A stretch of 63,961 nucleotides of DNA, the filler included, from Craspedostauros australis (lineage: Eukaryota), in assembly GCA_030167865.1 (NCBI GenBank). It is 17 parts of 17 records of this genome, joined end to end, with 100 filler letters (N's around TTAATTAATTAA, not from the genome) between each part and the next. Parts side by side here need not be neighbours in the genome. Positions count along the whole stretch, not along the records: positions 18,448 to 21,502 come from JALAGF010004711.1; 16 more parts are not named here. One strand, 5' to 3'. How positions within the stretch are numbered: the first letter of the stretch is position 1; each line of letters starts with the position of its first letter. Under the pieces are notes generated by a model. The model was given only the letters and a program-made list of their open reading frames with translations, had not been told where the DNA came from and did no database searches. The position numbers and the translations under genes are program-made. Shown one piece after another: positions 3,711 through 39,953 of the stretch.

Positions 3711-4519
3711 TGTTGGCAAGTTCCGCTCATGGAAGCCTATGATCATGGAAGACGGTGTTGGTTGATAGTCATTCTGTTTGCTATTTCATTACGTTGGCAC
3801 TCTGATCCTCTCAGTGTCTCCGTTCTCTTGCCTGATGCTCTTGGTGCATCTCTATGTTTTGTAGATTGGTCTCTGACTACAAGTCAGTACACGAGATGCT
3901 CTCTTGCTGCTCTTCACATTCTCTCTCTCTTTCTCAATATTGCGTGTTCATGATACACGACACTCCATGTTCAATGCGTACTCTGCATTTGACACTCCAT
4001 TCGTTCACTACTGGTTCCTACTCCATGAGTGCTCACCACTTGAACTCCTCCTCATGTATCCATGATCTCGATGCCCTTCAGTCATCGGATCTTCACCTAC
4101 TGCTTCTGACATGGAGACAGATGTCAACATGGTGACACAATGACATCCTGTCAACATCAGCTGTCATCTTCCTTGTTCCTCCAGATGTCACGTTCCATCG
4201 ATGATGCGATGGTCTGTCAGATGATATCATCATCTGGGGTTTAGTTGGGAAGTACTTCAAGCTTTGCTTGATACCATACGTTTCCATTGATGGATGGACG
4301 GACGATGTTCCTGATTCTCTCAGAAATCGTTGATTGCAAACTTCCTCCAGAGATTCTGCTCATTTTCGTGCATTCCATTTGTGCTGTGATTTTGACAAAT
4401 CACATCATACTATTGGCACGAATGTAGTTATACCGTCCAAGTATGTATAAGAGAATAGAGGGTGAACGATGCACATATACATGTACATCTTGACATATAC
4501 ATGCATGTACATCTCGACA
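3711..4519 (-). mobile_element. Solo LTR, family A (Copia)
   Basis: Reads TGTCGAGATGTAC...GAACTTGCCAACA on the minus strand. Homologous to the 3' LTR that follows the PPT of the Copia pol at 47410. No clean TSD. Confidence 0.85.
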
Positions 4520-5067
4520 TTCCAACATGTCATACAATCATCAAGGAACACTTGCCCTTTCATTCCATTTGGTTTGAGCCCACCATTGTCACTGTTTGTG
4601 CTTCCCCAAACACTCTGATGCTTGTGTGCGAGATGATCTTGTTTTGTGAAAGGCGTAGGCACCCGTTTGTTGAATGGTATTGAAATGAGAGAGTCTTCTA
4701 CAGGTATGGTACACACATGAATGGAAACGAAGAAAGCTGTGGCGAGTTGCGATTCTTCGTGTGATTGCATTGCTTTGAGAATGTCGTCGTCGTAGTTGTT
4801 GACATTGACGTTGGTTTGGTTGTATCTGTTTTTTGTGGGCCGCCATCGTTTTCTCTACTTCGTGTATTAGCAGCCGGTGCAACAGGTACAGATAATTTCT
4901 GGGTCTTCACCATTCCGACCGCTTGCGCAGCCGCTTGGGCGATGCCTGAGAGAGAATGAAGATGTGCAGAAGAGGGGGTCAAGTTCGCTGATGATATTGT
5001 TATTTTTGAGGCGAATATAGTCAACATGTGTAAGCTTAGCCAGTTGTGTTGGGACAATGGCGCTGAA

Positions 5068-7902
5068 CTAGATTCCGGGGATCCTGACTAATTCCAATGA
5101 TGCGAGGAGACCAACCTGAGTTGGAAGCGGTCTAGTGAATTTGGTCCGTTCTAGATCAAGAAAGGTGAGTGCTGTGAGTTGACCAATCTCGGATGGAAGC
5201 TGCCCAGTGAAGTCGGTAGATCCCAAATCAAGAAAGGCGAGAGCTGTCAGCTGACCAATCTCGGATGGTAGCCGCCCAGTGAAGTCAGTTGGCCCCAAAT
5301 CAAGAAAAGTGAGAGCTGTCAGCTGACCAATCTCCGATGGAAGCCGCCCTGTGAATTTGGTCCATTCTAGATCAAGAAAGGTGAGTGCCGTCAGAATACC
5401 AATCTCAGATGGTAGCCGCCCAGTGAAGCCAGCAGGTCCCAAATCAAGAAAGGCGAGAGCTGTCAGCTGACCAATCTCGGATGGAAGACGCCCAGTGAAG
5501 TCCGTTGGCCCCAAATCAAGAAAGGTGAGAGCTGTCAGCTGACCAATCTCGGATGGAATCTGTCCAGTGAGATCGGTGAAATCTAGGTCAAGAAAGGCGA
5601 GAGCCGTCAGCTGACCAATCTCGGATGGAAGACGCCCAGTGAAACGCGCCTGTTCCAGATCAAGATGTCCCAATGCTGTCAGCCGACCAATCTCAGATGG
5701 AATCTGTTCAGCGAAGTCAGTAGGTCCCATATCAAGAGAGGTAAGCGCTGTCAGTTGACCAATCTCGGATGGAAGCCGTCCAGTGAATTTGGTCGATTCT
5801 AGATCAAGAAAGGTGAGCGCTGTCAGCTGACCAATCTCGGATGGAAGCTGTCCAGTGAAGCCAGCAGGCCCCAAATCAAGAAAGGCAAGAGCTGTCAGCT
5901 GACCAATCTCAGATGGAATCTGTTCAGCGAAGTCAGTAGGTCCCAAATCAAGATAGGTGAGTGCTGTCAGCTGACCAATCTCTGATGGAAGCCGCCCTGT
6001 GAATTTGGTCGATTCCAGATCAAGAAAGGTGAGTGCTGTCAGATTACCAACCTCAGATGGTAGCCGCCCAGTGAAGCCAGCAGGTCCCAAATCAAGAAAG
6101 GCGAGAGCTGTCAGCTGACCAATCTCGGATGGAAGACGCCCAGTGAAGTCCGTTGGCCCCAAATCAAGAAAGGTGAGTGCTGTCAGCTGACCAATCTCTG
6201 ATGGAAGCCGCCCTGTGAATTTGGTCCATTCTAGATCAAGAAAGGTGAGTGCTGTCAGATTACCAACCTCAGATGGTAGCTGCCCAGTGAAGCCAGCAGG
6301 TCCCAAATCAAGAAAGGCGAGAGCTGTCAGCTGACCAATCTCGGATGGAAGACGCCCAGTGAAGTCCGTTGGCCCCAAATCAAGAAAGGTGAGAGCTGTC
6401 AGCTGACCAATCTCGGATGGAATCTGTCCAGTGAGATCGGTGAAATCTAGGTCAAGAAAGGCGAGAGCCGTCAGCTGACCAATCTCGGATGGAAGACGCC
6501 CAGTGAAACGCGCCTGTTCCAGATCAAGATGTCCCAATGCTGTCAGCCGACCAATCTCAGATGGAATCTGTTCAGCGAAGTCAGTAGGTCCCATATCAAG
6601 AGAGGTAAGCGCTGTCAGTTGACCAATCTCGGATGGAAGCCGTCCAGTGAATTTGGTCGATTCTAGATCAAGAAAGGTGAGCGCTGTCAGCTGACCAATC
6701 TCGGATGGAAGCTGTCCAGTGAAGCCGTTGGTGTCCAGATCAAGATATCGTAATGCTGTCAATCGACCAATCTGAGAAGGAAGTGGTCCAGCGAAGTTGT
6801 TGGACTCCAGGTCAAGACGTGTCAATTGTGTAAGTTGATGTATTTCTGACGGAAACGCGCCTCGCAGTTCCATGTACACTAGAGTTAGCTCTGATAGCAT
6901 ACTCAACATGCCAATGTGACTGAAGATAATACCATCGATCTGTCCGCGAGTGCTGGAAGTCATTTCCATTGACCATTTCTCAAGGTGTGAGAGATGATAC
7001 AGGGCTGGATCGAGCGTGCCCCGCATGCCTTCGTCACCCAAAGCTACTTGTACCACATGGCCATTATCGCATGTCACGCCACCAGAGGAAGAGTGCCAGT
7101 CGCACACGTCAGCATCTGATAGAAAGCCCATCTTGTCGTTCCACTTGGCTCCATGCAGTGAAAAGAATATGCTCACCACTGCATAGTACTCCAATAGGCG
7201 CGTGACATTGGCTTGTGCATCTTCCGCGATCATTGATGTGAGGTATTGGTGGTTGCTGTTTGCCATCCAGTTCAATGTCCGGTGTGCAGTACTGGTTGGG
7301 CTGGCGAGTATGGTTGTATCGATGAAGGTAGGCTCTTCTTGGAGTGTGGGCAGGAGCACCTCCCAAATGGCGAAGAAAGCTTCCGATTGATCGAAGCTGT
7401 ACGTTGGGTTCGACGAGGGTAAATCACTCGGTATATCCGTGGGTCTATGAGTTGGGCTCGACGAGGGTAGATCACTCGGTATATCTGTGGGTCTATGAGT
7501 TGGGTTCGACGAGGGTAGATCACTCGGTGTATCTGTGGGTCTGTGAGTTGGGTTCGACGAGGGTAGATCACTTGGTGTATCTGTGGGTCTGTAGGTCGGA
7601 TTTTGTGACGGTCGATCACTAGGGCCATTTGCGGTGGGCTGATACCTACTGCTGCCATCAATGTTGTTGTTGCCGTTGCTGCTGCTGTTCTCGCCACTGG
7701 GGGAGAACACTACGCCTACTGCAATGGCAACAGCTACACCGACGACCAGGAACATCACCGTAACAATACCTTTCCAGCTCCATCCTGCCCGCCGAGAAAA
7801 TGATTCAGGATTCTCATCATCTCTACCGAAGACCCCTGCAACTGCATCTGGAAGATAGATTGCATTCTCTGTGTTATCATCACATGCTGTCTCTTCATCC
7901 AT
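5068..7902 (-). CDS. Type II membrane LRR receptor-like protein with ~24 near-identical 24-aa LRRs
   Basis: ORF 5068..7992, likely start MDEETAC at 7902. TM helix GIVTVMFLVVGVAVAIAVGVVF, 16-aa stalk repeats, N-cap paralogous to the gene at 1..2931, and LRR consensus FTGRLPSEIGQLTALTFLDL. Confidence 0.92.
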   Translation of the reverse strand: MDEETACDDNTENAIYLPDAVAGVFGRDDENPESFSRRAGWSWKGIVTVMFLVVGVAVAIAVGVVFSPSGENSSSNGNNNIDGSSRYQPTANGPSDRPSQNPTYRPTDTPSDLPSSNPTHRPTDTPSDLPSSNPTHRPTDIPSDLPSSSPTHRPTDIPSDLPSSNPTYSFDQSEAFFAIWEVLLPTLQEEPTFIDTTILASPTSTAHRTLNWMANSNHQYLTSMIAEDAQANVTRLLEYYAVVSIFFSLHGAKWNDKMGFLSDADVCDWHSSSGGVTCDNGHVVQVALGDEGMRGTLDPALYHLSHLEKWSMEMTSSTRGQIDGIIFSHIGMLSMLSELTLVYMELRGAFPSEIHQLTQLTRLDLESNNFAGPLPSQIGRLTALRYLDLDTNGFTGQLPSEIGQLTALTFLDLESTKFTGRLPSEIGQLTALTSLDMGPTDFAEQIPSEIGRLTALGHLDLEQARFTGRLPSEIGQLTALAFLDLDFTDLTGQIPSEIGQLTALTFLDLGPTDFTGRLPSEIGQLTALAFLDLGPAGFTGQLPSEVGNLTALTFLDLEWTKFTGRLPSEIGQLTALTFLDLGPTDFTGRLPSEIGQLTALAFLDLGPAGFTGRLPSEVGNLTALTFLDLESTKFTGRLPSEIGQLTALTYLDLGPTDFAEQIPSEIGQLTALAFLDLGPAGFTGQLPSEIGQLTALTFLDLESTKFTGRLPSEIGQLTALTSLDMGPTDFAEQIPSEIGRLTALGHLDLEQARFTGRLPSEIGQLTALAFLDLDFTDLTGQIPSEIGQLTALTFLDLGPTDFTGRLPSEIGQLTALAFLDLGPAGFTGRLPSEIGILTALTFLDLEWTKFTGRLPSEIGQLTALTFLDLGPTDFTGRLPSEIGQLTALAFLDLGSTDFTGQLPSEIGQLTALTFLDLERTKFTRPLPTQVGLLASLELVRIPGI
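5110..6840 (-). repeat. Coding tandem array of 72-bp LRR units with an 864-bp higher-order duplication
   Basis: 72-bp period. Sequence from 5461 matches sequence from 6325 (offset 864 = 12 units). Confidence 0.9.
7404..7612 (-). repeat. 48-bp coding tandem repeat (stalk PTHRPTDTPSDLPSSN, ~4 copies)
   Basis: Repeated gagttgggttcgacgagggtagatcactcggt unit. Confidence 0.9.
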
Positions 7903-8457
7903 TGTTGGGTATGAATGTGGCTGCGGCTGCGGCTGCGGCTGTGTAGGTGGATTGTGCGTCAGTCGCACCAGCGACGAAGATGTGAATGTCACCTGCGCAA
8001 CTTGGACTCTCTCTCTCTCTCTCTCTGTCTCTCTCGAGATCGTGAGTGGTGGTGGTCACTGGATGATGTTGTTGATGGATTGTGAGGGTGAGGAAATAAG
8101 ATGCTCCAAACGATTTCAGGCATGCCAACAAGATCGATATTGGGCGAGGCAGAGAGAGCAACTTCGCTTCTCTGCAGCAACAATCCCTTGATCGCACTCA
8201 TCAGTGAGGTCGTGGTGGCATTTGCACCACGTTTGTCATTTGCATTCGTGACGATGATAGTGGGCAGCTGAGGTGTCAACCATTGGTAGTGGTGCCCTTT
8301 CGTACCGTTTCGTACGCATTGGTGCTGTATCGTCCCCCATCGCACACGCTGTCCTCGTACCACGCACTCTGGCACTCATCCTTCGACTTCCACAGATGTT
8401 CTTTACTTTCACGCACACGGACCGAACAGCCAAAGCGGCAATACTCGTCCGCTTCTT

Positions 8458-10295: not shown

Positions 10296-10339
10296 NNNNN
10301 NNNNNNNNNNNNNNNNNNNNNNNNNNNNNNNNNNNNNNN

Positions 10340-10351
10340 TTAATTAATTAA
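10340..10351. other. Artificial contig spacer (first of 16; others at 14522, 18392, 21547, 23325, 24860, 27704, 30740, 32663, 39898, 41981, 44178, 50533, 54385, 56912, 62615)
   Basis: TTAATTAATTAA (stop codons in all six frames) centred in N44 flanks, identical each time. Confidence 0.98.
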
Positions 10352-11501
10352 NNNNNNNNNNNNNNNNNNNNNNNNNNNNNNNNNNNNNNNNNNNNGAGGT
10401 CCCAAAGCAACGTCATGACGGCGAGCGACTCCACCATCCGTTCCGTGACGCCGATGAAGTCATAGTGACGCAGAATCTCCGTTTGAATGATGTTGGCAAC
10501 GCGTTCTGGATGGTTGCGGACGACGGATGGTGCGACCTTCCGTTCCAAGGCCCGCTTTGGCAAGAGACATCGTGTCTGCCTCCCACGCAGACGATGTTGC
10601 CTCAGAATCGAGATGACATTGTCATCCGTCGGTTTCTACTTCATGCGTGAGACGCGCAGATGATATACCTGTGACAAATCACGGTTGTTGGGCTGTCGCA
10701 CCATTGTCCACAGCAAGGATTCAGGTGCGGGCTTTCGGTCGGCTCCGTGCCATTTGTCATTTGCAAACTCATGACGATTCTGATGCGGGCACACCAAGTT
10801 GCGACTGAACGGATAAGAGTCTGCTGATTCACCGGCAGCATGAGTTGGATTGGAAGGGTGCGGTGCCAATGTGTGATTTGCCGTGGATGCCATCATATGT
10901 GCGAACTGCCGTTTTGCAACTTGATGTGCAATGTGCTCATTCACGCCTTCGCATGTGCTGGATGAAGCCTTGTGCGACTTTACATAGAGGATCCCAATCA
11001 TGGGAAGCTTGGGTTGATTGTATATGAATGAATAGCCTGGCTGGGCTGAATAGTCTGGCTGGGCTGCCGTTGTGGTCGCTTTCTTGTAATGATCATCCGT
11101 TCCCAGGGTTGAGCACCATGCATGGTGCCGTGCTGGTGCCTGGATGTGGTTGAAAGGGACGCCGTGGATGCCTTTCTCACTTGACATGGATGCTGGATGC
11201 GCATGAAATACACGCGCCGTGGAATTGACAAACGGTTCCCACCATTTCGTTCTGACCACATCTGCGGTGTTGTCGTCTGTATTGTTCGTGGAAGGTGCTA
11301 TGGATTGTCGAGTGTCGAGTGTCACGCTGGGTGCCCGATTCTTGATCCTTCGCTTGGGATGTGCGTTTATCATGAACAGCACTCTCCTGCCTCGACTTTG
11401 GTGTCGACGTTGCTTGTGGTGAAGCACCCTTCTCCATGATGGTAGTTGCTTGAGATGGACTACCAGCAGCAGCATCTGTTGACATTCGTTGCGGTGGCAC
11501 G

Positions 11502-13056
11502 TGTCGAGATGTACATGTGAGTATATGTTAAGACGTACGTGTATATGTGCATCGTTCACCCGTTATTCTCTTATACATGTACGGACGGTGTAACTACATT
11601 CGCGTCAATAGTATGCTGCGATTTGTCAGAATCACAACACAAATGGAACACACGAAAATTAGCAGAATTTCTGGAGGAAATTTGCAATAGTTGAAGTTCA
11701 TCTAAAGAACGGACTACTTTTCACTCAGTGTGTTCCTTGTCGCACCATGAAATTATTTTGGCACGAAATTTTGGCGCGAAACCTCCCACCAACAAATACG
11801 GAACAATTACGCTTTTCCCTCCTTCTCCCACTTTCACTCATGAATCACCACTGACTCAAATACTACTCGAGTCAATGGGATCAAGGCACCCTGGGAACTA
11901 TATGCTCTTCTGAACTCTTGCGATGCAGTCAATCTGGATTCCATTGTCAGCTATACCAGCTGGCAACCCTGCACGACAATAGCCAAGAGATCCTCCCTGC
12001 TTCAATACATGCAGGGAATCCTACAACAATTCCCTTGGCTTGACAACCTGTGTTCTTGATCTCAACTTCAATCAAGGTGTCAAGGCTTTGTACTCAACCG
12101 TAGAACGACTACGATGAGATAGTGGAGAAAGAGAGAAAGAGAGGACCTGTCCGCTCGCAGCACTGAACCTCTGAAGGTCAGTGCAGAGCCGCACTACTCA
12201 ATTGATTACCGTTTCTTCATCCTACATCTCAAACTGATCAACTCACAATGCAGACTATTCAAATAACAAATAGCACAACTCAAGGTCAGCACAACAACAC
12301 TAATCTATTCATTGTCATTCACTACTATTCCCCAGACGGTCGCCCCAAGTTGACTTCACCATCAGATTCCTAAAATCTGGCAGTCAACTAGGCCATCCTT
12401 TTCGGATCGTGTCACAATAGTACACAAAAATCCAACTGTAATCAACAATTTCTGAGAGATTCAGGGATATCGTCCGTTCATCCATCAATGAAAACGTATG
12501 GTACCAAGCGAATCTCAAGGTACCTCCCAACTAAACCTCAGATGATGATATCATCTGACAGACTACTGCATCACCAATGGAACGTGACATCTGGAGAGCA
12601 GAAGGACGCTTACTGAAGTTGACAGGATGTCATCATGTCACCATGTCGACATCTGTCTCCATGTCAGAAGCAGAAGGTGAAGATTCAATGACTGAAGGGG
12701 ATGGAGATCATGGATACACAAAGAGGAGTTCAAGTGGTAAGTACTCATGGAGTAGGAACCCGTAGTGAATGAACAGAGTGTCGAATGCGGAGTACACATC
12801 GAACACGGAGTATCGTGCAACACGAACATGGAATATTGAGAGAGAGAGAATACGATAGCAGCGAGAGAGCATCTCGCGTGCCAACTCATAGTCGGACGAC
12901 CCAATCTACAAGATAGACAAACGTGCCAAGAGCATCAGGCAAGAGAATGGACACCAAGAGGATCGGAGTGCTCAACTAATGAAATAGCAAACAGAGCGAC
13001 TATCAACAACACCATCTTCCACAACTGTCGGCATCCAATCACGGAACTTGCCAACA
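11502..13056 (+). mobile_element. Solo LTR, family A, split by a family C element
   Basis: TGTCGAG start at 11502, ...TTGCCAACA end at 13056. LTR sequence resumes at 12438 after the insert. Degenerate 6-bp TSD GGCACG/GACACA. Confidence 0.85.
11689..12437 (+). mobile_element. 749-bp solo-LTR-like element, family C (AGTTG...CAACT)
   Basis: Precise insertion in LTR-A with inverted termini AGTTG/CAACT and 5-bp TSD GCAAT/GTAAT. Homologues at 21139 and 50935. Confidence 0.8.
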
Positions 13057-13182
13057 GACACATCAATATCGGTATCTCGTTGTGCGTTCATCGACATGCC
13101 AGACAGAGCCCCATAGTTGAAGGCAAAGGATGCGATTGCCAGACACAGCATCCCCAGTCTGTATTTCTGGATGACCGACATC

Positions 13183-13827
13183 TGTTGGAAATCCGGGGTT
13201 AGTGTTAGTAAGACCTAATTCGTTGTTAGACCGTACTATTCAGAACTGTGAGCTCATTCTCTTCAGCTCCTTTGCCTTTCGTTTCTCATATAGCATCTCC
13301 TACAGCAGCATCGTGTTATACTGTTGCGTTCATGCATCTCATCATCATGAATCATCGCTTGCATACATGAGATCGCATCCGCAGGCATCCTTTGTCATGC
13401 ACCTTGTCGTGCATATCCTTATTCTACATTCCCTGCGGTACGATTCCACAGTCTTGCGTTTCGCTCTTGATCTCCTGACACCNNNNNNNNNGATTGGTGT
13501 CATGATTGGTGTCATGGATGATGCCCTTTCTGAGTTGTTCTAGTCCGTGGGTGACACGTGCCATGATCTCCAGATGGGTTGATCATCAATGTGTCGGTCA
13601 TCATCTTCCTTCACATGATTTAGATATCGTGGCCTTTTCTTGATTCACAGAGGACAGGCTTGTTTNNNNNNNNNNNNNNNGGTCATTCCCGTGTGATTCG
13701 TGTCGTGGGTGGAATGGATAATATTCAATGGTGTGACGAATAATATCCAAAGGTGTGACAAATAATGTTGGGAGTTGCGGCAATCATGGGTATCTTTCTG
13801 ACATAGTCGTACCCTCGATTCCTGACA
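13183..13827. mobile_element. Solo LTR, family B, with 6-bp TSD GACATC
   Basis: TGTTGGAAATCCGGGG...GATTCCTGACA, with GACATC at 13177-13182 and 13828-13833. Confidence 0.9.
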
Positions 13828-14577: not shown

Positions 14578-16563
14578 GTGAGAAGTGGACCCTCTGCGAG
14601 CTGAGCGGTCAAGACCGTATTTGTCTCGGATATCCACCTCTGTGTTGGAAATCCGGGGTTAATGTTAGTAGGAACTAATTGGTTGTTAGATCGTACTGAT
14701 TTAGAACTGTGAGCTCATTCTCTTCAGCTCCTTTGCCTTTCATTTCACATATAGCATCTTCTGCAGCAGCATCATGTTATACTGTTGCATTCATGCATCT
14801 CATCATCATGGATCTTCGCTTGCATTCATGAGATCATATCTGCAGGCATCCTTGTCATGCATCTCGTCATGCATATCATCATTCTACATTCCCTGTGGTA
14901 CGATTCCACAGTCATGTGTTTCTCTCTTGGTCTCCTGACACCAAACTTTACGATTGGTGTCATGATTGATGTCATGGCTGATGCTCTTTCTGAATTGTTC
15001 TAGCCCGTGGATGACACGTGCCTTGATCTTCAGATGGGGTGATCACCAATCCGTCAGTCATCATCTTCCTTCACATGATTTCGATGTCGTGGCTTTTCTT
15101 GATTCATGGAGGACAGGCTGATTTGCTTGGTAAGACTGAGGTCATTCACGTGTGATTTGTGTCATGGGTGGAATGGATGATATTCAATGGTGTGATGAAT
15201 AATATCCAAGGGTGTGACGAATAATATCCAAGGGTGTGATGAATAGTGTTGGGAGTTGCGGCAATCATGGGTATCTTCGACAGAGTCGTACCCTCGATTC
15301 CTGACACCTCTGTATCGATTATGCCTTGGGCCTGCAAGGCCTCCAGCGCCACGTATACATCATCCCGGAACTCCAGGAGCCTTGGCGGATTCAGTTTCCT
15401 CGTCAAAAGCTTGCCATTACGAAGTCCCGCACCTTCGACTTGTCGCACCATTCGCTTGATCCATTTGCCGGGTTGTAATCCGGTGCCTGAAGTTGTCTTC
15501 ACGCATGGAACGCCGAATCGTGCTCCGTCATGCCTGTTGCTTTTGGTGCGACCGATGATGGCAAGCCGTGCGTGCGGAAGCTTCACATCTTGAAGATGCT
15601 TGAGACTCGAAGAGGTAGCAAGAAGGTCAATTTGTAGCATCTCCTCTTCCCTCAGCCCAGTGCAGAAGGCCACAATTGTAAGCATAGCCACTTCTGCGGT
15701 TCTCTTGCGCCGGGAGTGATCGTTGTCCATTCTCCACTCTTGCTCCAACAGAGCTTCCAGCCCATGGATCTTGTCAATGGTGTAGGCACGAGCTGGCTTG
15801 CGGATCTGACCCACTCTCCTGTGGGTGCCTTCCATGAATTGAGTGAACCAGAATTGATGCGACGGCACACTTGACATCCACATGCGGGACCTCTTGTATG
15901 CCATGACAGACTCCCCAAGTCCAGCAACACCCGCTTGGTGAATATTGGTGATGACCGACCTGGTGCGTCGAAAGGTCTCCCATTGAACATTGGTCGCATA
16001 GCAACCTGTATCCAAGGACCTGTTAAGTACTGCCATTGCTCCAGCCATGCCACACAAATCTTGAAGCGGGAAGGGCCCCATTGGAGCGCTGATGGATGGG
16101 ATGTTCAACCGATCCGCAAAAGCTTCCATGCGTCGGGCTTCGCGAAGATTTGCCGCGACAGTGGATGGTTCTCTGCTCCAAAAGGCGTCAAGGTTGGCTC
16201 GTCAAATGTAGACAAGCATCTCTCGATCCTGTTGTCTGTGGTTGAGTGGCTTGTGGAGCATGATATTGTGGAAGTGACAGCGATCGCACTGAAACGGCAC
16301 CATGAGATGGTCACCGTTTCGGGCTATTCGGAAGCGAGTCTTGTCGGTATCCGGAGTGAGATCGATACCGTCATCGTCGTTGGCAGTTTGGACAGGAAAG
16401 TTCTTGTCTCCAATCTTGCCATAGCACGAGCCGCACCAAGCTGACCTACAGGGAGCAAAGGGCCCGCGCGGACTGGAGAAGTTCGCGCAGAACACGCCTG
16501 CACCTGATTGGATCAGCTTCCCACACACCTCGCTGCAGCAGAACCTCATTTGGTTCTTCCAAT
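14578..16563 (-). mobile_element. Tyrosine recombinase ORF of a DIRS/Ngaro-like retrotransposon (degenerate, split by LTR-B)
   Basis: Cys-rich N-terminus (CRSAWCGSCY...GDHLMVPFQCDRCHF), stop at 16202, FCTGLREEE (catalytic R) and GRTK. After the LTR the frame continues EVDIRDKYGLDRSARRGSTSH (14642-14578; RSxRRG box). Confidence 0.82.
14643..15306. mobile_element. Solo LTR, family B, with 6-bp TSD CCTCTG
   Basis: Same termini as the 13183 copy, with CCTCTG at 14637-14642 and 15307-15312. Carries one extra 22-bp internal unit (gaataatatccaagggtgtgac). Confidence 0.9.
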
Positions 16564-18347
16564 ANNNNNNNNNNNNNNNNNNNNNNNNNNNNNNNNNNNN
16601 NNNNNNNNNNNNNNNNNNNNNNNNNNNNNNNNNNNNNNNGGTGAGCAGGCCATTCATGACACCGTTCAACCTTGAAGTAGAAGTCACTCAACCGCAACAG
16701 CTTCCTCCGCCACCGACCAGTCATCAATCTGGGTATGCAGACCACGTGCAAGTTCTGGGGTTGCTTGTGCCGAGTTTTGCCAATCTGATCGATCATCGCA
16801 TCCGCAGCTGCAGGAGCAGATTCCCATACAAAATTGCCTCGCCGTTGGCCCGTACTGTACCATCCTTCAGGGGTGAGCCATTCGTATTCGATTCCCTCCA
16901 AACATGTTCTCATGGTGTCCTTGAGATGATTGCCTCTTCGATCTGATGGCTGCAAGTGGAGAGGAATGTGTTGCAGCATGCTCTGTCCAGCCATAACGCC
17001 GGTGCTGTGATCAGCCCGAGACAATCTGTCCGTGCCTTGAAGTATCATCCGATCTCCACTGACATGTATGACATGCAAGATCATGTTTGACTTCATTTCG
17101 AGCAGTCTCATCTCGAGCACCAGGTCCGTCAAGCATTTGGAGGTTGAATTTCCCTTCCAAAACGCACTCTCAGCAGTGGAGTTATCCGTGAAGAGGAACA
17201 CCTCGCTCCCTTCCAGCTTGAACTTGGCAGTCCATTCTTTCAAGGCTTCGACCAAGTTCTTGAGCTCACGCCAGTTTGATGTGCTGGNTTCATTTTCTTC
17301 TGANGTCCATTCGCCGTACTGGAAGGCAATGTCATTGCCGACCTGAAGGGAAGCGCCAAATCCGGCTTGTGATGCATCTGCAAAACCGTGCCAGGCTCGA
17401 ATGGAATGACCAGGCCACATAAGATGTAGTAGTGGCTCTGGTGGTGCAAAGAACTGATGAAGATCCTCAAGGTCGGAAGCAAGACGCAGAGCAGGCTTGA
17501 TGTACTCAGGTGGAGGAGTGGCATCACCTGTTGCCACATGTGTTGATGTTGTCTGGTTGATGTAGCTGAGGATTCTCCAGCCGTCTGCATCCCTTCCTTC
17601 TCTCCATCCATCTATGGTGAGATGGAATTCGATCAGGTAGGGTGTCATTGGCTTGTAGGTCTGACAAAGGTAGTTCAAGAATCCTCGTATGCGTTCCAGC
17701 TTCTTTCGCTCGATGGTGTCACTCTTCACAAGATCTGCCAGGACAGAGGCCACCTGATCGCGGCCCTTGTCCCATTTTTCTTGTGTTGCTGTGGTGTACA
17801 CACCTGAGTCATGGGCCACCACCACTGCCCCAGTCCAAGGACCAGGGGTCCTGGTAGCAGCTCGACGCTTTCTTGCCGCGTCCTGAATACCAAGGTAGGC
17901 CAGCATGTGTCCCACTCGCTTGGTAGCTCGCCAGCAGATGTCTTGTGAGCCTCCAGTAAGACGGACATCGTCCACGTAGATGAAGGCATCTGCTGCAATG
18001 TTGCCGTTGCTGTCCAGTTTCGAAACCCAAGGAAGAGACGGATTGAAATTCACCGATCCAGGGAGGTTCAGCCGGACTTGGCTTCATTGGAACACGTTGA
18101 GCGGATCAGTGTGGGACCCCAGGATAGCTTCTTCAGCGAAGAGCATGGCTTGGACAGCTTGATAAGGCGATGACTTTAAGCCCATTGCTGCCCGATCCCA
18201 TCGCTCCCAAACAAGCTTGTTACCAGCCTTGGGGTCCTCTTCAGTCAGATAGTGTGTGATGTTGACACCGCAGACCCGCTTCAGGCATGGATGAAGCATG
18301 AAATTCAGGAACATCTCTCCAATGTCGTTGTCAGCCATGAAGGTGTT
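16446..18347 (-). mobile_element. RT-RNase H ORF of the same DIRS/Ngaro-like element
   Basis: DIGEMFLNF, MGLKSSPY and YVDD (RT); FADAS, STSNWREL, FTDNSTAE and HVSG...QGTDRLSR (RNase H). Premature stop at 18084. 3' end overlaps the YR ORF in another frame. Confidence 0.88.
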
Positions 18348-18447: not shown

Positions 18448-18826
18448 GACGCGACATGGAATGAACATGACCGGTGAGTATGTGATGATGGCGCAGGAGG
18501 AATACTGAGGAACCGAAGGTCAAGTGGGATCAATCAGACTGAGACCCATGCTGAAGGTACCTGTGCGTCTATGAGAGATGCTGCTCGAATGTAGAAGATG
18601 CAANNNNNNNNNNNNNNNNNNNNNNNNNNNNNNNNNNNNNNNNNNNNNNNNNNNNNNNNNNNNNNNNNNNNNNNNNNNNNNNNNNNNNNNNNNNNNNNNN
18701 NNNNNNNNNNNGATTACACTTGCTGCTGAATTGGAATTGGAGAGTCAAGGAGTTTGTTCTCACAGTTCTAAATTGGTACAGATTGATAACAGATTAATCT
18801 ACTACCCTAACCCCGGATTTCCAACA
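18448..18826 (-). mobile_element. Diverged family-B-related LTR (partial) inserted in Copia RT
   Basis: ccccggatttccaaca (18811-18826) is the reverse complement of the family B terminus. It abuts Copia RT codons HDMTY. Confidence 0.7.
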
Positions 18827-18883
18827 TATGTCATGTCATGAATCACTGGTGAGTAGTGTTCCTGGAAGTCTACGCCTGTAACT

Positions 18884-19089
18884 TATCAGCACAAATACGT
18901 ATAGTGCAAATTACGTTACTCCCATAGCCCCCACTATCTATAAATTTCACTTGTGTTTGGATCAGCAATCGCAATGCCTGTAGCTCAATGGTAGAGCACC
19001 AGTAATTCTCACTGAGGTTCCAGGTTCNAATCCTGGCATGGTACTTTGCTTTTGCTCTCCCCTTGTGATTTTTCGATAGTGCTCTTTCA
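18884..19089 (+). mobile_element. 206-bp tRNA-containing mobile element (family D), copy 1
   Basis: Interrupts Copia RT codons AQV|TGVDF. TSD TAACT (18879-18883) / TGACT (19090-19094). Termini TATCAG...TTTCA. Confidence 0.88.
18974..19044 (+). ncRNA. tRNA-like Pol III cassette (pseudo-tRNA, TTC at anticodon position)
   Basis: A box TAGCTCAATGG, D stem GCTC/GAGC, anticodon stem CAGT/ACTG, T arm CCAGG-TTCNAAT-CCTGG. Acceptor stem is imperfect and position 33 is A instead of U. Confidence 0.75.
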
Positions 19090-21138
19090 TGACTTGTGCA
19101 TATCCACATGCAACGAGCCGTGCTCGATGTGTGCCATTGCGTTTCAACTTGAAGACCCATTTGCATTTGCAGCATCTGCGGCCTTGTGGGATGGCATCTC
19201 ATTTGATCTTGCTGTACACCTTGCGTGTATCCATGGAGCTGAAATCCTTCTTGATGGCTGCTCGGTATCCCTTTCGATGGATGGGATCCGGATGGTTGAA
19301 CACCCCATCGAACGTCGTCAGTTTGATGTGCTTCTTGGATTCTTCGTTCTGGTCCTGAATCGACAGTCCGATGTCGATCGCTGGTATCTCGGCGACGATT
19401 GCATTCATCCCGTATAGTCTGTTGGTGCTGTGATGGATAACCTCTGTCTCTTCTATTTCGTCTACGATTTCATCATCATCTGTGTTCTCGTTGTCATCAC
19501 TCAGCTTGTCAGCTAACTCGTCGCTGAGTTCGTCGCTCTCCTCGTTCGATGATGATTCGTTCTCATCACCTCGTTCCTTCTGACCTGGTTTGTTGTTGTC
19601 TGTGAGCGCGCACAGTACTCTGGGAATCTTCTTCCCTGCAGTTGCCTTGGGATTGTTCTGTCCCTTCCTGCCTCTTGCTTTGTGACATTGGAGTCTCTCC
19701 TTTCTGTCTATATCACGCTTGCTTGGTTTGGTTGGTGGAGGTCTTGATGGTGTACCACGCGCAGGCATTGCTGGTGTGTTCAGAGGAGTGATGCCCTTGT
19801 CATCGTCGGCTTCGTCGCCGGATGGTAGGATCTCGTCATCCTCAGGGTCGGACTCACTCCGATCTTCCTCGTTCTCAAGCAGTTGGGTCGCTGCTTCCTT
19901 GTCCTCATCATTGCTGTCCGATAGGATGTGATACTTGTTCGTGTTGGCAAAGGATACTCTCCTTCGTTCTGTCGTTTGACGCATTGCCGTCCTTGGCGTT
20001 GCTCCCTTCCGTCCAATGGTTGTGAAGCTATCTGCGTTCGTCATTTCTGAATCGTTGAGTGTGTTTGGTGCTTGNNNNNNNNNNNNNNNNNNNNNNNNNN
20101 NNNNNNNNNNNNNNNNNNNNNNNNNNNNNNNNNNNNNNNNNNNNNNNNATGGTCTGTACATGTTGTACACTCCTGATGCATGTTGGTGTGCATATCCAAT
20201 GAACACCATCTCTTCTCCTCTATTCTTGAGCTTGGCGGAGATCCTGCCATAGGTGGTCTTCACAACAACAACCTCTCTGAATGTTTGAAGTGAATCGGCA
20301 TATGGTGGATTGCTGTCAAAGAATTGGCGATGGCAGTGGCAGTGCTTGCAGCTGCTGCCCACAGGCCATGCCTCTATTTGTTGTTGAGTTGTGCTCCGTT
20401 GAGAATGGAACGGATCTTGGTGTAGAGATACGCAAACTTGCGTTCTACTCTACCATTCCGCTGTGGCGTGTTGGACGCCATGAACTCGAATTTCGCATTC
20501 AGTCCTGCATCGATGAGAGTATCCTGCGTGGATTTGTTCTCTCCGCTGTTATCGCCTTGGAAAATGATGTGTTGATCACCTGTGTGTGACTTGATCGTCT
20601 GCACGAATCGTTTGATACCCTGGTTGGTCCCTCTTGTTCTGCAGAAAGAAACTCCAGCAGTGGTCCGTGAAGTCGTCCACGATCAAGGTCCAGTAGCGTT
20701 TATCTCCAAAGCCTATGTGTTTAGTGTAACTGATATCGATGAAGAGGCGCTTGCCACGGCGAGTCGCTCTTGGGATTCTAGTCTTTGAGATGTTCTTCAC
20801 TCTCGCATTCGTGACAGCACAGTCGCGACACACCAGCATCTCGCTGATGATCTTCCATCCGTATTGAGCGGCTGTCCGCTTCATGGTCTCAAGTGGTGCG
20901 TGACGGAGCATTTGGTGTAAGCTCACCATGCTCACCTCCTTGGATGGGCTCTTGATGATGGCTGTGGAAGCCTTGTCATCCTCAGTTGGCATGATGGGAT
21001 GCATCTGCACTCCTGTGATGAATCCGTTGGATGGTGGGAAGATGCGATCGAAGATGATCTTCTTCCCAGCTCTGTTGACGATGTCCATCAGAATGCCGTC
21101 GTTACGATCTGGTAACTGTTGTACAGAGCCTTGTTCGT

Positions 21139-24815: not shown

Positions 24816-26706
24816 NNNNNNNNNNNNNNNNNNNNNNNNNNNNNNNNNNNNNNNNNNNNTTAATTAATTAANNNNNNNNNNNNNNNNNNNNNNNNNNNNN
24901 NNNNNNNNNNNNNNNGTGCTGTTGATCGCCGGACACTCGATGCTTGTTCCGGCAGGCAGCGGATGGAGTAGTAGACTCTTGCAATACGGGCTCTGGGAAT
25001 GGTGAGAAACAAATCGGTCTTTGACACACGCGTGTGGTGCAAACAAAGAAATTGAGTGACTTCGTGTCCTCGCCAGATCGCATCGGACACTGAGATGGAT
25101 CGCCAATTTTGCATCAAGAAGTGCCTCGCCACAAATTCTCGGACTCCACGAATTGGCCCCAATACAGTCATCACAGCCTCAACCACACACAGCAACTATT
25201 AGACTTCTACAAAATGAAGTCGAATAGAATACTCTCGAGTGGACAGCTACTGAGTCGAGTAGATCGTATAGTATACCCAAAGAGCTCCAACTGGTTGCAC
25301 CCTCACACGATTTCCATCATTCCAGTCGCTCCCATTCTGGAGAGGCCCAATCAGAAAGGTATTGGCTGAACAGAAGGAAAGCAAAGTTGATGCAAAAGTA
25401 CCATCTATTCGATGACGCAAACATCAATACCACAATGGAGAAACAGCAACACTGAGGCTCGCCTCGGATAGATCGTACACGTACGTCAACTTTGGCAGAG
25501 TACTATACTCGAAAGAGTATATTCATTCGCTTGAACCATGGTGGCGATCCCGAGGTATTGCCAATCGCTCTTCGAGAGCGACTGTGCTACATAGTATGAT
25601 GGCAAAGTGGTCGCCCATTCGTTCAGATTGCACCACAGGGCTACTGTCCCATACTATTGTCAACAGCTACTCCAATATTGACATCATACAAGTCCTCCTT
25701 TGTTACGTCACCCTCAGAAGAACACAGAAGGCCTTTGATTGCTTGTTATTGACGCAAAATTGAATGCGATCATAGGCATGTTTACTTTACATAATGGCGT
25801 GGCGAGATTGCAAGGATGTCAGATTATATGCAAGCTGCAAGACACGGTGGTCGGAATGGTGCAATAGGTATTCAAAAGTCGCGCGCTCCAAGTGCCGCTC
25901 GTTGCGTTAGTTGACACCGTTCCCGATGGCCTGATGGCAGGTACAGGAGATGGCAGCAAGGGAGCAGGCGAATACAACACAGTTCTAAACTCGCTGATGG
26001 TAGCTCGTGACGTGCCAGCATGTTGAGACTGCCACTCTACAAACAATGCAACGGCTTCCCTGTGGTTCCTGAACTCTGTGAGCCATAATCGCTGCAAAGC
26101 AACAACAGTTGGTACACGCAAACAGAGTCAGACTTTCCTTTCGGTCGTCGACTGCATCCGAACGGGGAAGCCGATTAACATTGGGGAGGATTTGTCACTT
26201 CTTGTGGCACATTCTGATTGCGTTCCTTCTGCAAGGAGTGCTTCTGGTGGCGTGTTTGCTCAGGGAGTCCATCGAATGGGGTGGAGCACAACACGTGTTT
26301 GCAAACGGAATGGGCACCAGATCAATTATCTCACATTTATTCAGTCTGTCGGCCGCTCCTTGTTCTGGATTTGTCATTTCTTGAACAGACAGACACAACC
26401 AATAGACACACAAACAGACTACTATTCAATGCTGTCAACAAGACAGACATGAACATAGTTGACTCATGCGAACAAATCAATACCACGACTGAATTTGTTC
26501 TTGGGTTAATAGAACCAATAATAACGGCTATTGATACTTGCTGGGAGGCAGGGGCTTAGATGNTGGTTGCGTCCACCTGTTGACCGGCCAATCGTCATGC
26601 CTAATTCAAGGAGACAAACGCCATCATCAACAGCACCATCGTCATCATGGTGATGGCAATCGCGGTGAACACCCACAGGACCACTTTGGTGATGTTCTGA
26701 TGTCAG

Positions 26707-27282
26707 GGACACCCAATAATTTGTCCAGAATTCCGAAAATTACATGTTCTGGAGTCTTGCGGGACTAAATCAAGAGAAAATCAGTGCAATGATCGAATTG
26801 TGTATTTATTATTCAAACACGACAATTCAGAGAGAAATTCCTTGAAATGCGCAATTTCCGTTAACGGACAATCAATTATCGGACATAGTCGAACATGAGG
26901 ACAAATCCGGACAGTCCCTGACAAATCCGGACAGATCCGGACAAATCCGGACAAATCCGGACAAGCCACGACACTAACCGGGTAAAACTACGATTCCATG
27001 TAGTCGGATTTGTCCGGATTTGTCCGGATCTGTCCGGATTTGTCCGGATTTGTCCGGATCTGTCCGGATTTGTCAGGGACTGTCCGGATTTGACCTCATG
27101 TTCAACTTTGTCCGATAGAGTCCGTTAAGCCATTGCTCGCCATTGCTGAATTTTTTCTCAAATGGTCGACTTAGAAGAAAATAATGACAAACTTGATCGA
27201 TACTCTGGTTCTGTCCTTTTTCAGTCCCGCAAGACTAGAAAAGATGTCAACACACAAATTCTGGACAAATTATTGGGTGTCC
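26707..27282. mobile_element. PIF/Harbinger-type MITE (576 bp)
   Basis: Perfect 26-bp TIRs GGACACCCAATAATTTGTCCAGAATT, 3-bp CAG TSD (26704-26706, 27283-27285) and an internal palindrome of 10-bp repeats. Confidence 0.88.
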
Positions 27283-27759
27283 CAGGAGCAGCCTTTGTGT
27301 TCATCTTCGTTCTTTCCGGCTGGTTCGTTGGCAACACAGGCACAAAGACACGTGCCCATCCAACGGGTCACCAAGGCGATTACATCACGGACAACAGCTC
27401 TGCGTGGAACGTGGAGCGGAAGAGTTGAGAAAGACACAGATCCTTCTTGAATGATCTTGATGCACGTCACGTCACAAAGGTTGGGTCAGAGCAGAGTGGA
27501 GCAGCTGCAGAGTAGAGGAGAAGCAATAATACAGACTCCAGAACGTCAGTAACTCAACGATGTCTTCCTTGATGGCCGGGACGATCCCCGACAGCTCCGC
27601 GACCGCACGCCAACAACAGAAGGCGCTGGCACAAGCGCAGCACCAGCATGGCCTACACGNNNNNNNNNNNNNNNNNNNNNNNNNNNNNNNNNNNNNNNNN
27701 NNNTTAATTAATTAANNNNNNNNNNNNNNNNNNNNNNNNNNNNNNNNNNNNNNNNNNNN

Positions 27760-32718: not shown

Positions 32719-35200
32719 TGGGAAGTGGGAGCCACCAGCGCGAACTGGTTCACTCTGACTGAGCAAGCCAAGGTGCATCAGGTGCAGTATGACAAGGAGA
32801 CTGGGGAGTACGTGGTGCTCCAGATCGAATCGATGTTGATGGTGGCAGACGAATTTCCGGATGTCGAGATCAAAGGACTCGAAGTGGTGGAAGGATCGTC
32901 ATTTTGACTGCTGACGCTTGACGACAAAAATGCATACTCGTTCACAACGCACACCAGTCAAAAAGGGACGGCGCTCGGCAAGCCTATCAAGTTGCTCATG
33001 AAGCGATGCATGGTGGAGGCTCCTGTGAGCATCCTACCAGGCCATGGCGACAAGTGCAGGTATGATGCGAATCTTCCAGGTGGTAGGAAGCAAGTGGTCA
33101 ATGGTGGTTCCACAGTCGTGGTGGGCAAGTGTGGCCAAATAAGCATCTGCAGCACAGCTGGAAGTGCGAATGGTGGAGGATCTGATACAACCGAGGAGGC
33201 AGGGTGATTTCCTGAGAATGGAAGCCATTGCGGAGCTGTGCAACAGGGAGGAAAGGTAAAAATTGAATCTGTGTGGAAGGTCAATGAAGTAGTTCTGGAT
33301 GTCTGAGATTGTTATGGCGGACGGAACAGGCATTCTGAAGGCAGTCCTTGAAGATGATGGAGCGATGGTGGAAGCCAGTGAAGTGAACGTGCCTAGAGTT
33401 GGGCGGCTCAAGCAAGCGTATTGGGCAACATGGAGGTCCAAGCTCAAGGAGATGCTGGGTTGGAATAGCGTGCTTCAGGATCGTTTACGGCTGGGCAAGT
33501 GGAGCAGTGCAGGCAGTGCGACCTCCATGAGGTAGAATGAGCAAACTGGGAGGCTTCAGGTCCACGGCGATGGATGGATGGAATGGAGGGAGGTTCCAAT
33601 GAAGTCAAGAAGGAAGCTGTTTTGGCAAGTGCCAGGAGTGGTGGGAAATGGAGAAGGGTCCCCGTGGATGGCTACAAGCAAGGAGATGGCATACTGATGC
33701 TGACAGTTGGTGAATGGGATGATACCATGGTGGCAGATACCCAGGGGATGGAGAATGTCTGGGGAGATCTTGGCAAGGCCAAGTCATGGGCTGGGAAACA
33801 CATCAGATGTGAAGTCGACTGGAGAGATATGGCCCAGAGTGTACGAGAAGAGACGGCGGTTGGCAGAAGTGACGGGTCTGCCAGAAATGGCAAGGGAATG
33901 GCGGCATGGGCGATGGCCACTGATGAGACTCTGGAGGTGATGGTGTTTGGAACCTTTGAGGCTCCGCGGAGGGAGGGCCTGACATCGTCCCAGCGAGCGG
34001 AGTTGGCGGGAATCTACGGTGCGCCAATGAAGGTTTGGGAAATGAAGGAGAGGTTTGGAATACAAGACGGACGGGGGCGCTGAAGCTGTGACAACCTGTA
34101 AGCCCTGAAGGTGCTGGAGTGGGTACATGAACCGGATCTGGCGAGTCCTGGTCANNNNNNNNNNNNNNNNNNNNNNNNNNNCCGAAGCCAGCTGAGTACA
34201 ACGTTTGTGGGATGACACGTGCGTGGGCATCAGGACGAGCACAAGAAGCCTGACGAACTTGATGTGTGGGAGCATATGAATGTCATTACGGACCGGATCG
34301 TAGTACAGCGATGACGAATGCTCGAAGAGAACGATGCGTGAAGCTCTCACCAGAACACAGGGACGTGATCATGGCACATTGCAAGACAAGGCGTTCGCAG
34401 GTCGAGCATCATGTATGCCAGTGTCATTGGAGATGTGGTGGCTGTGGGAATGCAGATGGTTTGGTAGAAGGCAAGGACGAGTGACAGCTGCCCCAGGTGC
34501 GGCAAGATGGAAACTCATGGCCGCCTCTGGGTCTGCTGCTCACTGGAATCGATGGCATTTTGGAAAGTGCAGCGGAAACGGCTGAGGATCACGATGTGGA
34601 AGATGCCGACTCATCCTGCCATTGCAAAAATACGGTTGAGCAATGTCAAGCAAGTGTTGAGAGAGCTGGGACCTGTTGGACGCATATGCGCAAACTGGGC
34701 TGAGGCAAAGCTGATGGACAATCAACAGGAGGCAGGATGGGATTGGCTGGTCATGGGCGTGATCGTGGGGTCATGGACCGAGTTACAGGAGCAGTACTAC
34801 GTGCAAATCGGTTGCAGGCTGTCCACAGCAAGGTGGGCGGCACGGATCGTGCGCAAGCTCTGGAAGGTGGCATGGAAGCATTGGCACCAATGCAATCAGG
34901 CAATGCATCGCACTGATGAGGGGCCAGAGGCTCACATGAGGCAGGTGTTGCGAGACTACAGCTCAACCCTGCAAGACGCAGCGCAACTATGAGGGGCAAG
35001 TATGGCTATGTGGGCCCGACTACAGCTGTCAGGCAAAGGAGCCACAGATATGGGAACGGTCGCAATATGGTTTGGACAAGTGCACCGAGTGCTGCAGATA
35101 CCAGGCAATAAAGTTCCTGTTGAAGTCCGAACTTGGCTCCGCCGATGGCAGTAGCTGGCCATCGTGAATGAGGCTGTCCCTGGATTTCCCTGTGTGAGTA
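32719..35200 (+). mobile_element. Degenerate 3' part of an Ambal-like non-LTR retrotransposon (RNase H, zinc finger, Trp-rich C-terminus)
   Basis: RSDGS...SSQRAELAGI...CDN...HVRGHQD (RNase H), CPRCGKMETH..C, and QQEAGW...RKLWKVAWKHWHQCN. Many stops and frameshifts. Confidence 0.8.
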
Positions 35201-35936
35201 CACAAATACATACACCTTACATATTACCAGAGAGCCACGAAGAGTGGAGAGCAGGATAGGTGGAGGCCGTCGTGATCCTCTGAGCGTGCATACATATTGA
35301 CTTGATAGCCGTTCTGCCTCGTGCCCTACACGAGATAAAAGCGGGTGGCATAAAAAAGTTTACGGCGCAGGCTGGGCACACACTAATCAGCTTAATCCAT
35401 GAGCTATATGTATAGTGCAATGGAGCACAGTGACTAATCCTTTGGTATGTAAAATATATGTTATTGAACACTTAGGTTTGTTTGTAAATACAAAGTCCTG
35501 CTGAACCTGCTTTGCTCTCATGCAGATGGGACGCCATGGCCATCTACTGAGCCGTTGGCATGGTGTGGAAAGAGACTGGTGGCAGCAGTGGTTTTAATTG
35601 TTGTTTCTGGTGTTGTGATGTGAGTGCTTGCAGGTTCACTGGCACTGAAACAAGAAATTGAGAGGAGAGCAGATGAACAACAGCCAGAAGCCAACAATGA
35701 CTGTTTGCGACAACCAGCAGAGAGGAGGTCCAAGCACACAGGCAGGGAATAGACCTGAAGCAAGGACGAGGCTGTACAATTGAGTGGGTACATGGAGGGA
35801 AGGCAATGTGTGCTGAATGGGACATGGACGAAGCTCAACCTGTTGGGCCATGAACGGTGGCAGAACCGAGAACAAAGCAGTGTGACAGTCTTGGTGGAGG
35901 TCAGGCTTTGGATTACACACCAACCCACAACTCTGG

Positions 35937-36143
35937 TATTAGAGCACTATCGAAAAATCACAAAGGGGTGAGCAAAAGCAAAGTACCATGCCGGGATTCG
36001 AACCCGGAACCTCAGTTAGAATTACTGGTGCTCTACCGTTGAGCTACAGGCGATGCGATTGCTGAACCGAACACCAGTGAAATTTATAGATAGTGGGGGC
36101 TACGGGAGTAACGTACATAGCACTATTCGATTTTGTGCTGATA
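35937..36143 (-). mobile_element. 207-bp tRNA-containing mobile element (family D), copy 2
   Basis: Perfect 5-bp TSD TCTGG (35932-35936, 36144-36148). Collinear end to end with 18884..19089. Termini TATCAG...CTAATA. Confidence 0.9.
35983..36053 (-). ncRNA. tRNA-like Pol III cassette (pseudo-tRNA)
   Basis: TCGCCTGTAGCTCAACGGTAGAGCACCAGTAATTCTAACTGAGGTTCCGGGTTCGAATCCCGGCATGGTAC. Intact A and B boxes. Confidence 0.78.
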
Positions 36144-36362
36144 TCTGGATCTCGACAACTGATCCATAGCCCAGATAAAGCAGCAACTTCAGCATGCCTA
36201 CTGCCACTGCCCAATCCTCGACATTGTTTCGCAACAACCCGCCTCACCCACGCGAAATGTGAGTGTGTCGATGAAGGACACGACTGGACATTGGTCGAAG
36301 CACGACTGAGAATTTCGAATCCAAGTTGCCCCTTTACGTTCGCATGCCTCACGTGTCTAGTA

Positions 36363-36489
36363 GTAAACTAATGCGAAAAATATAAACTTTTTAACTACAA
36401 GGCCCAGAAGCTTGTAACTTAACCCATACACTATCTACAACATAATAGGATGATTTAAGTAAAAATATTAAAAATCCGCATTTGTGTAC
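36363..36489. mobile_element. Small AT-rich MITE-like insertion
   Basis: Imperfect TIR GTAAACTAATGCG / CGCATTTGTGTAC flanked by TA on both sides. Markedly AT-rich relative to the flanks. Confidence 0.45.
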
Positions 36490-36666
36490 TATCGTATCCT
36501 GAATGGGGTCATAAAGATCGACGCGTCGTCAACAAGGAGGAAAGATCGACACGATGCAGATTGCGTTCTCAACGATGACAGCAGAGAGAGAGGCAGCGAA
36601 GGCAATGGCAATGGTGATGGTGATGACCATGACCATGACGCCCACAATCGAAAAGAGAAGCACATC

Positions 36667-39853: not shown

Positions 39854-39953
39854 NNNNNNNNNNNNNNNNNNNNNNNNNNNNNNNNNNNNNNNNNNNNTTA
39901 ATTAATTAANNNNNNNNNNNNNNNNNNNNNNNNNNNNNNNNNNNNNNNNNNNN

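Follow-up and report, generated by a model that had tools for sequence, protein, structure and literature searches.

A 206-bp mobile unit with a tRNA-derived core in Craspedostauros australis, a candidate solo long terminal repeat of the Helenus type

Helenus elements are miniature retrotransposons with terminal repeats (TRIMs) that carry a tRNA-like sequence in their long terminal repeats (LTRs), and they have been described from fungi, six animal phyla, and Selaginella (Kojima 2024, PMC10886601). Together with the 5S-bearing elements Cassandra and Ajax, they have been collectively named TRIMp3. Here we report a unit of 206 bp that occurs in two copies in 63,961 nucleotides of DNA from Craspedostauros australis (GCA_030167865.1), a stretch that is called the window in the following. 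With a probability of roughly 0.55, it represents a solo LTR left by a small non-autonomous LTR retrotransposon of the Helenus, or TRIMp3, type, with a tRNA-derived RNA polymerase III (Pol III) promoter module inside. A preliminary description of the same DNA had put forward a tRNA-bearing solo LTR (or TIR element) of which it knew no description in diatoms. This remains the best-supported reading of the unit, while no paired copies, primer-binding site (PBS) or polypurine tract (PPT) were seen in the window. The idea of a tRNA-bearing LTR, for its part, has been in print since 2024 as Helenus/TRIMp3, and the host lineage is what remains possibly new.

Several properties of the published Helenus elements are relevant here (PMC10886601). 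Their target-site duplications (TSDs) are 4-6 bp long, with 5 bp in the fungal and plant families, and solo LTRs with 5-bp TSDs are common. The ends are typically, although not universally, TG...CA: the fungal LTR consensi that we compared start with TG in 26 of 27 cases and with TA in one, and the complete ones among them end with CA in 23 of 26 cases and with TA in three. Fungal LTRs, whose lengths include 187-274 bp with 5-bp TSDs (Table S1), begin with a leader (about 30-190 nt) and continue with a tRNA-like part, a T4 run shortly past it and a short tail; all six P. graminis LTRs have this T-run. The tRNA-like parts are mostly incapable of encoding a tRNA, and the PBS matches host tRNAs and not the element's own tRNA-like part. 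Copia helpers have been proposed for the fungal families. Helenus itself still lacks experimental validation, according to the author of that study.

The first copy of the unit lies at 18884-19089 (+), is 206 bp long, and stands antisense within a Copia reverse transcriptase (RT) gene; it contains a single N, at 19028. The second copy lies at 35937-36143 (-), is 207 bp long, and is surrounded by sequence that is unrepeated elsewhere in the window. The copies are collinear, with 90.6% identity across 203 columns (blastn E 1e-77), and begin at the same base with the shared sequence TATCAGCACAAA. At the other end the similarity stops at ...GATAGTGCTCT (...GTGCTCT), and the final 4 nt are unlike, copy 1 closing with TTCA and copy 2 with AATA. 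The unit is therefore bounded by TA...CA in copy 1 and by TA...TA in copy 2. Its 3' ends read ...CTCTTTCA and ...CTCTAATA, with no A-rich or repeat tail.

Both copies are flanked by 5-bp TSDs. Copy 1 has TAACT on its left (18879-18883, +) and TGACT on its right (19090-19094, +), which differ by one silent-transition mismatch, and copy 2 has a perfect duplication, CCAGA in element orientation (TCTGG on the + strand), on its 5' side (36144-36148, -) and its 3' side (35932-35936, -). Of 56971 positions scanned across the window at fixed spacing, 62 (0.11%) gave a 5/5 match and 1016 (1.8%) a match of at least 4/5. Both copies lie inside continuous sequence. The preliminary description had claimed two collinear copies with the same boundaries and 5-bp TSDs, and had read them as products of integrase or transposase insertion; the copies, their common 5' boundary and the TSDs are confirmed, and fixed ends together with a fixed short duplication point to an integrase-type insertion.

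The insertion of copy 1 could be traced to the base. Its host is a degenerate Copia integrase/RT gene with an in-frame stop (18826-20449, -), and the empty target site is retained in two paralogous genes of the window: as CGACT at 46033-46037 (-), within the open reading frame (ORF) 44186-47386 (+), and as CAATC at 55244-55248 (+), within the ORF 54396-56915 (-) of a third Copia RT. Both ORFs match RVT_2 at E 1e-39, and the uninterrupted sequence across the site reads ...cctgCGACTtgtg... in the former (minus strand) and ...ccagCAATCtgcg... in the latter. In tblastn searches, both paralogues aligned to the host gene up to 19091 and resumed at 18882 with the same residue, the frame changing from -1 to -2. 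The two empty paralogous sites and the continuity of the RT frame thus define the insertion as exactly 206 bp plus 5 bp, which bears out the earlier claim that copy 1 splits a Copia RT and hence has moved. In a protein search, the relatives of the Copia pol genes were mostly metagenome proteins, with best identities of 43-60%, and the diatom Nitzschia inconspicua (41% identity) was the only named eukaryote among 120 listed matches. One Atlas cluster gave a weak hint of Bacillariophyta and another Atlas search gave nothing, so that a diatom-like host is probable on this evidence. A second break in the host gene, at 18826 and 57 nt past copy 1, is due to an unrelated LTR that extends downwards from that position (-) and belongs to the TGTTGGAAATCC...CCTGACA family described below.

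The internal layout is the same in the two copies. A leader of 90 nt precedes the tRNA-like part, which starts at element position 91. Within the leader, TATAAAT occupies positions 56-62 (18939-18945, +, in copy 1, which is 29-35 nt upstream of the inferred tRNA-like position 1; 36082-36088, -, in copy 2), and CAA is found at positions 83-85. The tRNA-derived core, at positions 96-155, is a 60-nt local match to the Rfam tRNA model RF00005 in each copy, covering model positions 6-65 of 71: it scored 35.0 bits at 18979-19038 (+) and 35.4 bits at 35989-36048 (-), for a gathering score of 29 bits. Both copies have the box A region, TAGCTCAA(C/T)GG, at positions 98-108 (18981-18991, +; 36036-36046, -), and box B, GGTTCGAATCC, at positions 140-150 with GGTTC at 140-144 (19023-19033, +, with the N of copy 1 at 19028; 35994-36004, -). 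Past the core, a T4 run (166-169) and a T5 run (about 186-191) are candidate Pol III terminators (19048-19075, +, in copy 1; 35951-35979, -, in copy 2). The roughly 90-bp leader, the TATAAAT about 30-35 bp upstream and the T-tracts that had been noted before are accordingly present in both copies. The two copies gave the only tRNA matches in the whole window (Rfam, E<=5), and the unit had no 5S match in Rfam, either at the gathering score or at E<=10.

The core is derived from a tRNA and cannot encode a working one; it is not a functional tRNA gene. ARAGORN found 0 tRNA genes in the unit. The outer five acceptor pairs fall outside the Rfam match, and a manual reading allows copy 2 just 3 or 4 of its 7 acceptor pairs, and copy 1 still fewer. 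For the anticodon loop the sequence is AATTCTA or AATTCTC. A 72-nt tRNA-like fold gains no stability over shuffled sequence (z -0.15), and its centroid fold has a 3-bp closing helix. The preliminary description had seen a 71-nt tRNA-like fold with intact boxes and had pointed to tRNA models as a check. The A and B motifs stand, with the N in the B box of copy 1, and so does the similarity to the tRNA model as a local Rfam match (35.0 and 35.4 bits), but the fold does not, and no gene was called by ARAGORN. The statement that a 'whole tRNA transcription unit' had been captured was too strong, given that no working tRNA could come from this tRNA part.

These features agree in large part with Helenus as published (PMC10886601). 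We compared the unit by eye, without sequence alignment, with the consensi of the fungal LTRs in one part of the supplement, and found the same order of parts and a unit length inside the fungal LTR range. As in Helenus, the tRNA-derived core carries TRGCY...YGG and GGTTC motifs and makes no working tRNA, and the TSDs are of 5 bp, as in the fungal and Selaginella families. The unit differs in being seen only as solo copies and not as two LTRs with a PBS and a PPT, in its TA...CA/TA ends in place of the usual TG...CA, and in a TATA motif that precedes the tRNA-like part by about 30-35 nt. The ends are unusual, yet they have precedent among the published Helenus LTRs. The host also differs: stramenopiles are absent from Table 1 of Kojima, and neither 'diatom' nor 'stramenopile' appears as a word in that article. 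Cassandra and Ajax resemble the unit in having a fragment of a Pol III small-RNA gene inside the LTR and TSDs of 5 bp, but theirs is derived from 5S rRNA, whereas the module of the unit is tRNA-derived and without a 5S Rfam match. Copia-type solo LTRs, such as those of the diatom CoDi elements (Maumus 2009, PMC2806351), are likewise single short repeats with short TSDs in a retrotransposon nest; unlike them, the unit carries a Pol III-type module and is dissimilar to the Copia LTR of the window. A full-text literature search found no account of tRNA-bearing LTRs or tRNA-derived SINEs (short interspersed elements) in diatoms, and the passages seen of Maumus 2009 (PMC2806351) and of a 2025 preprint on diatom transposable elements mention neither SINE nor tRNA, nor TRIM as an element name.

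How the unit would have spread can be outlined on the Helenus model. The full element would consist of an LTR, a PBS, a short internal part, a PPT and a second LTR, and would be reverse-transcribed. The integrase of an autonomous LTR element, for which the Copia type is abundant here, would insert it and make the 5-bp target duplications, and recombination between the LTRs would then leave a single 206-bp LTR between the duplications. On this map, U3 would extend from position 1 to about 83, with TATAAAT at 56-62 and CAA at 83-85; R would run from about 84 to 170, comprising the tRNA-like core, boxes A and B included, up to the T4 run; and U5 would be positions 171-206. The tRNA-like part may serve as a promoter and structure module and not as a working tRNA. 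Directed by boxes A and B, Pol III would begin its transcript near position 84 and end it at the T-runs, leaving out the 83-nt leader and the last 36 nt. Given the 90-nt leader and the internal T4 and T5 runs, such a transcript falls short of the whole unit. Its copying by a LINE (long interspersed element), the route of SINEs, therefore does not account for whole-unit copies, which require a path through cDNA or DNA that brings the flanks along. Two features of the window speak for the Helenus-type reading: solo LTRs with clean TSDs are common in it (for example, 13183-13827 and 14643-15306), and it contains at least three Copia pol genes.

Several observations weigh against this reading. The two window copies are both solo, in opposite orientation and 17 kb apart, and no internal domain, PBS or PPT was found with them; that both are solo would fit a stand-alone element of 206 bp at least equally well. 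The TA...CA and TA...TA ends, with the last 4 nt different, are odd for the recognition ends of an integrase. The unit has no similarity to the ends of the window's Copia LTR (TGTCGAG...CCAACA), and another LTR family in the window has duplications of 6 bp and not 5 bp. A Copia TSD for comparison with that of the unit was not found in the window. Selection on structure is not visible either, as the only apparent compensatory pair in the T-stem consists of two CpG decays.

Differences between the copies are in large part of this kind. Copy 1 has 4 CpG and copy 2 has 11, and 6 of the 9 transitions between them are CpG in copy 2 and TpG or CpA in copy 1. From this loss of CpG we read copy 1 as a decayed and probably methylated copy. 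The change from CCGGG/CCCGG to CCAGG/CCTGG in the T-stem, which looks compensatory, was considered as a sign of structural selection and rejected, because both of its changes are CpG decays in copy 1, where 6 of the 11 CpG of copy 2 are gone (rough chance estimate 0.07). A block of 27 identical nt around the TATA motif was likewise considered as conserved and set aside; with 12 differences in 95 nt, it has no significance by our own estimate.

Evidence for further copies came from outside the window. Within it, neither blastn (word size 7) nor nhmmer (--max, with a profile of the two copies) found a third copy or fragment, and scans with three stretches of the unit gave 0 matches among metagenome contigs (two scans), viral contigs (three) and genome contigs (one). 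None of the sequencing runs listed for this DNA was on record as RNA. One run, here called X1, the kind of which we guessed, contains a quarter of the words of 34200-39800. One of its contigs, of 226 nt, matches 35994-36143 with 3 differences and continues beyond 36143 with 76 letters that are not in the window, which points to another locus with the identical 5' boundary. At least three X1 contigs have one-base length variants at 35962/35963. The variant contigs of X1 indicate that the family is larger than the two window copies. The contigs of this run cover the unit and not its immediate flanks, as 35696-35882 and 36257-36443 are uncovered. Their summed depth is higher over the tRNA-like and 3' parts than over the leader, but contig depth cannot rank the parts of a sequence and supports no conclusion here on expression or copy number. 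Farther from copy 2, an X1 contig of 1002 nt matches 36476-37476 with zero differences. One arm of an inverted pair of 1.4-kb repeats (36662-38056 and 50936-52340, 94% identical, with ORFs without a Pfam match) begins about 500 bp from this copy.

Among the alternatives, the one that survives best, though we hold it to be unlikely, takes the 206 bp as the whole element: a miniature DNA transposon resembling a miniature inverted-repeat transposable element (MITE), or an integrase-mobilised element, with short imperfect inverted ends and a tRNA-derived Pol III gene that is there by chance. Its cut-and-paste movement would rely on a DDE enzyme with 5-bp target duplications. That each copy is a single unit with identical 5' ends and 5-bp TSDs suits this explanation, and a gene for a PIF/Harbinger-type DDE transposase is present in the window. 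The ends themselves can be argued both ways. The preliminary description had listed short inverted ends, and they are present but weak: the terminal 6 nt are inverted at 5 of 6 positions in copy 2 and at 3 of 6 in copy 1, a degree of conservation that is poor over a short length, and the two window copies do not share conserved terminal inverted repeats that reach about 10 bp. A subterminal inverted repeat (positions 5-18 with 190-201) pairs the ends in the predicted fold of copy 2, the whole-unit fold of which has z -2.4 (5 of 200 shuffles fold as well), but this repeat is degraded in copy 1. Among DNA transposon superfamilies, 5-bp TSDs are rare, and PIF/Harbinger elements make 3-bp duplications, which counts against a MITE-like origin. 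So does the layout, which agrees with the published Helenus LTRs.

It is also conceivable, if rather improbable, that the unit belongs as LTR to a larger retrotransposon, either an autonomous Copia or Gypsy element or a large non-autonomous one, with a tRNA-like stretch, and not to a TRIM. The evidence from insertion and TSDs is the same for this explanation as for a Helenus-type LTR, and 206 bp is a plausible length for a Copia LTR. 'Not a few' LTRs in Repbase have tRNA-like parts, and only some of them come from TRIMs (Kojima, PMC10886601). However, the unit is absent as an LTR from all Copia and other LTR elements of the 64-kb window, and its intact Pol III-type layout, with TATA, A and B boxes and T-runs, is a trait reported for TRIMp3 in the same article.

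Comparably improbable is a unit that matches no described class: a complete, self-contained mobile Pol III minigene, with its own TATA, A and B boxes, terminators and short ends, inserted in the integrase manner. In a weaker version of this proposal, the unit may represent an independent Helenus-type lineage in stramenopiles that arose from a captured tRNA gene with its upstream promoter and not from a SINE that landed in an LTR.

Still less probable, in our view, is an atypical tRNA-derived SINE or another retroposon inserted by the enzyme of a LINE, the two 5-bp TSDs being coincidental. The unit shares with SINE2 elements a tRNA-derived part with A and B boxes, a decayed acceptor stem, a short length and the lack of coding sequence; a LINE with an AP-endonuclease domain is present in the window (39905-44177), and the variable last 4 nt would be possible for the 3' end of a retroposon. 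The X1 run has at least three contigs at element position ~181 and one at position 69, which could mean extra copies without the leader, subject to the limit on contig depth given above. Unlike in SINE2 elements, however, the tRNA-like part starts at position 91 and not at the 5' end, as the 90-nt leader precedes it in both copies and in an X1 contig. The internal T4 and T5 runs would halt Pol III before the end of the unit, there is no A-rich or repeat tail, and what follows the LINE ORF downstream shows no resemblance to the unit. Both copies, moreover, are of identical full length with equal 5-bp TSDs. The case that had been made against a SINE, from the shared 90-nt leader, the missing tail, the internal T-runs and the 5-bp duplications, was upheld on each of these points.

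Finally, a non-mobile unit is very improbable. Whether it were an assembly artefact or a genomic tRNA pseudogene that had been duplicated along with its flanks, this explanation could appeal to a scaffold stitched from contigs by N44-linker-N44 joins and to the presence of two copies only in the window, but both copies lie within continuous sequence, run X1 holds further variant copies, and copy 1 breaks an RT frame and has a duplicated 5-mer. The comparison with the two empty paralogous sites comes near to a refutation.

If a Helenus-type LTR is confirmed genome-wide, it would extend the TRIMp3/Helenus design to a stramenopile, probably a diatom, and would support a repeated origin of this design across eukaryotes. 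Units that bear tRNA-derived sequence swell the counts of tRNAs and pseudo-tRNAs and can be mis-called as SINEs. They would also spread TFIIIC/Pol III binding sites through methylated transposon islands, which is open to testing in diatoms because their genetics is tractable.

The surroundings of the two copies are rich in other repeats. Many gaps of the window (10296-10395, 39854-39953, and about 20 similar ones) consist of 44 N, TTAATTAATTAA, and 44 N, which is a six-frame stop linker; the window is thus made of artificially joined contigs, and neighbouring blocks are not necessarily adjacent in the genome. The solo LTRs at 13183-13827 and 14643-15306 belong to one family (TGTTGGAAATCC...CCTGACA), are 84% identical, and have the 6-bp TSDs GACATC and CCTCTG. 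The Copia element with the ORF 44186-47386 has its 3' LTR at 47410-48955 (+), which starts with TGTCGAG directly past a purine-rich tract, ends with CCAACA, and holds a nested insertion of about 880 bp. Pieces related to this LTR were found at 3709-4519, 11503-13058 and 58380-59047.

Non-LTR and other sequences were also recognized. The LINE-like ORFs at 39905-44177 (-) comprise one with an AP-endonuclease domain (Exo_endo_phos, E 2.4e-5) and a next one of 730 aa without a Pfam match. An ORF of 545 aa at 16449-18083 (-), also without a Pfam match, has a YVDD motif and an RNase H-like DAS...GFGA, and is possibly a divergent DIRS-like or other retroelement polymerase. A 578-nt palindrome at 26706-27283 is 75% self-complementary, and its centre matches plant microRNA-precursor families below threshold (MIR6440, 55 vs 95 bits); we take it for a probable foldback or MITE-like hairpin and not for a microRNA gene. 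Two large leucine-rich-repeat ORFs occupy 1-8055 (-), the second of which has a tandem array of about 23 units of 72 bp (5026-6920) as its basis. Near the other end of the window, a fragment of a PIF/Harbinger-type transposase at 62690-63259 (+) (DDE_Tnp_4, E 6e-14) is followed by an array of 15-bp tandem repeats at 63327-63641.

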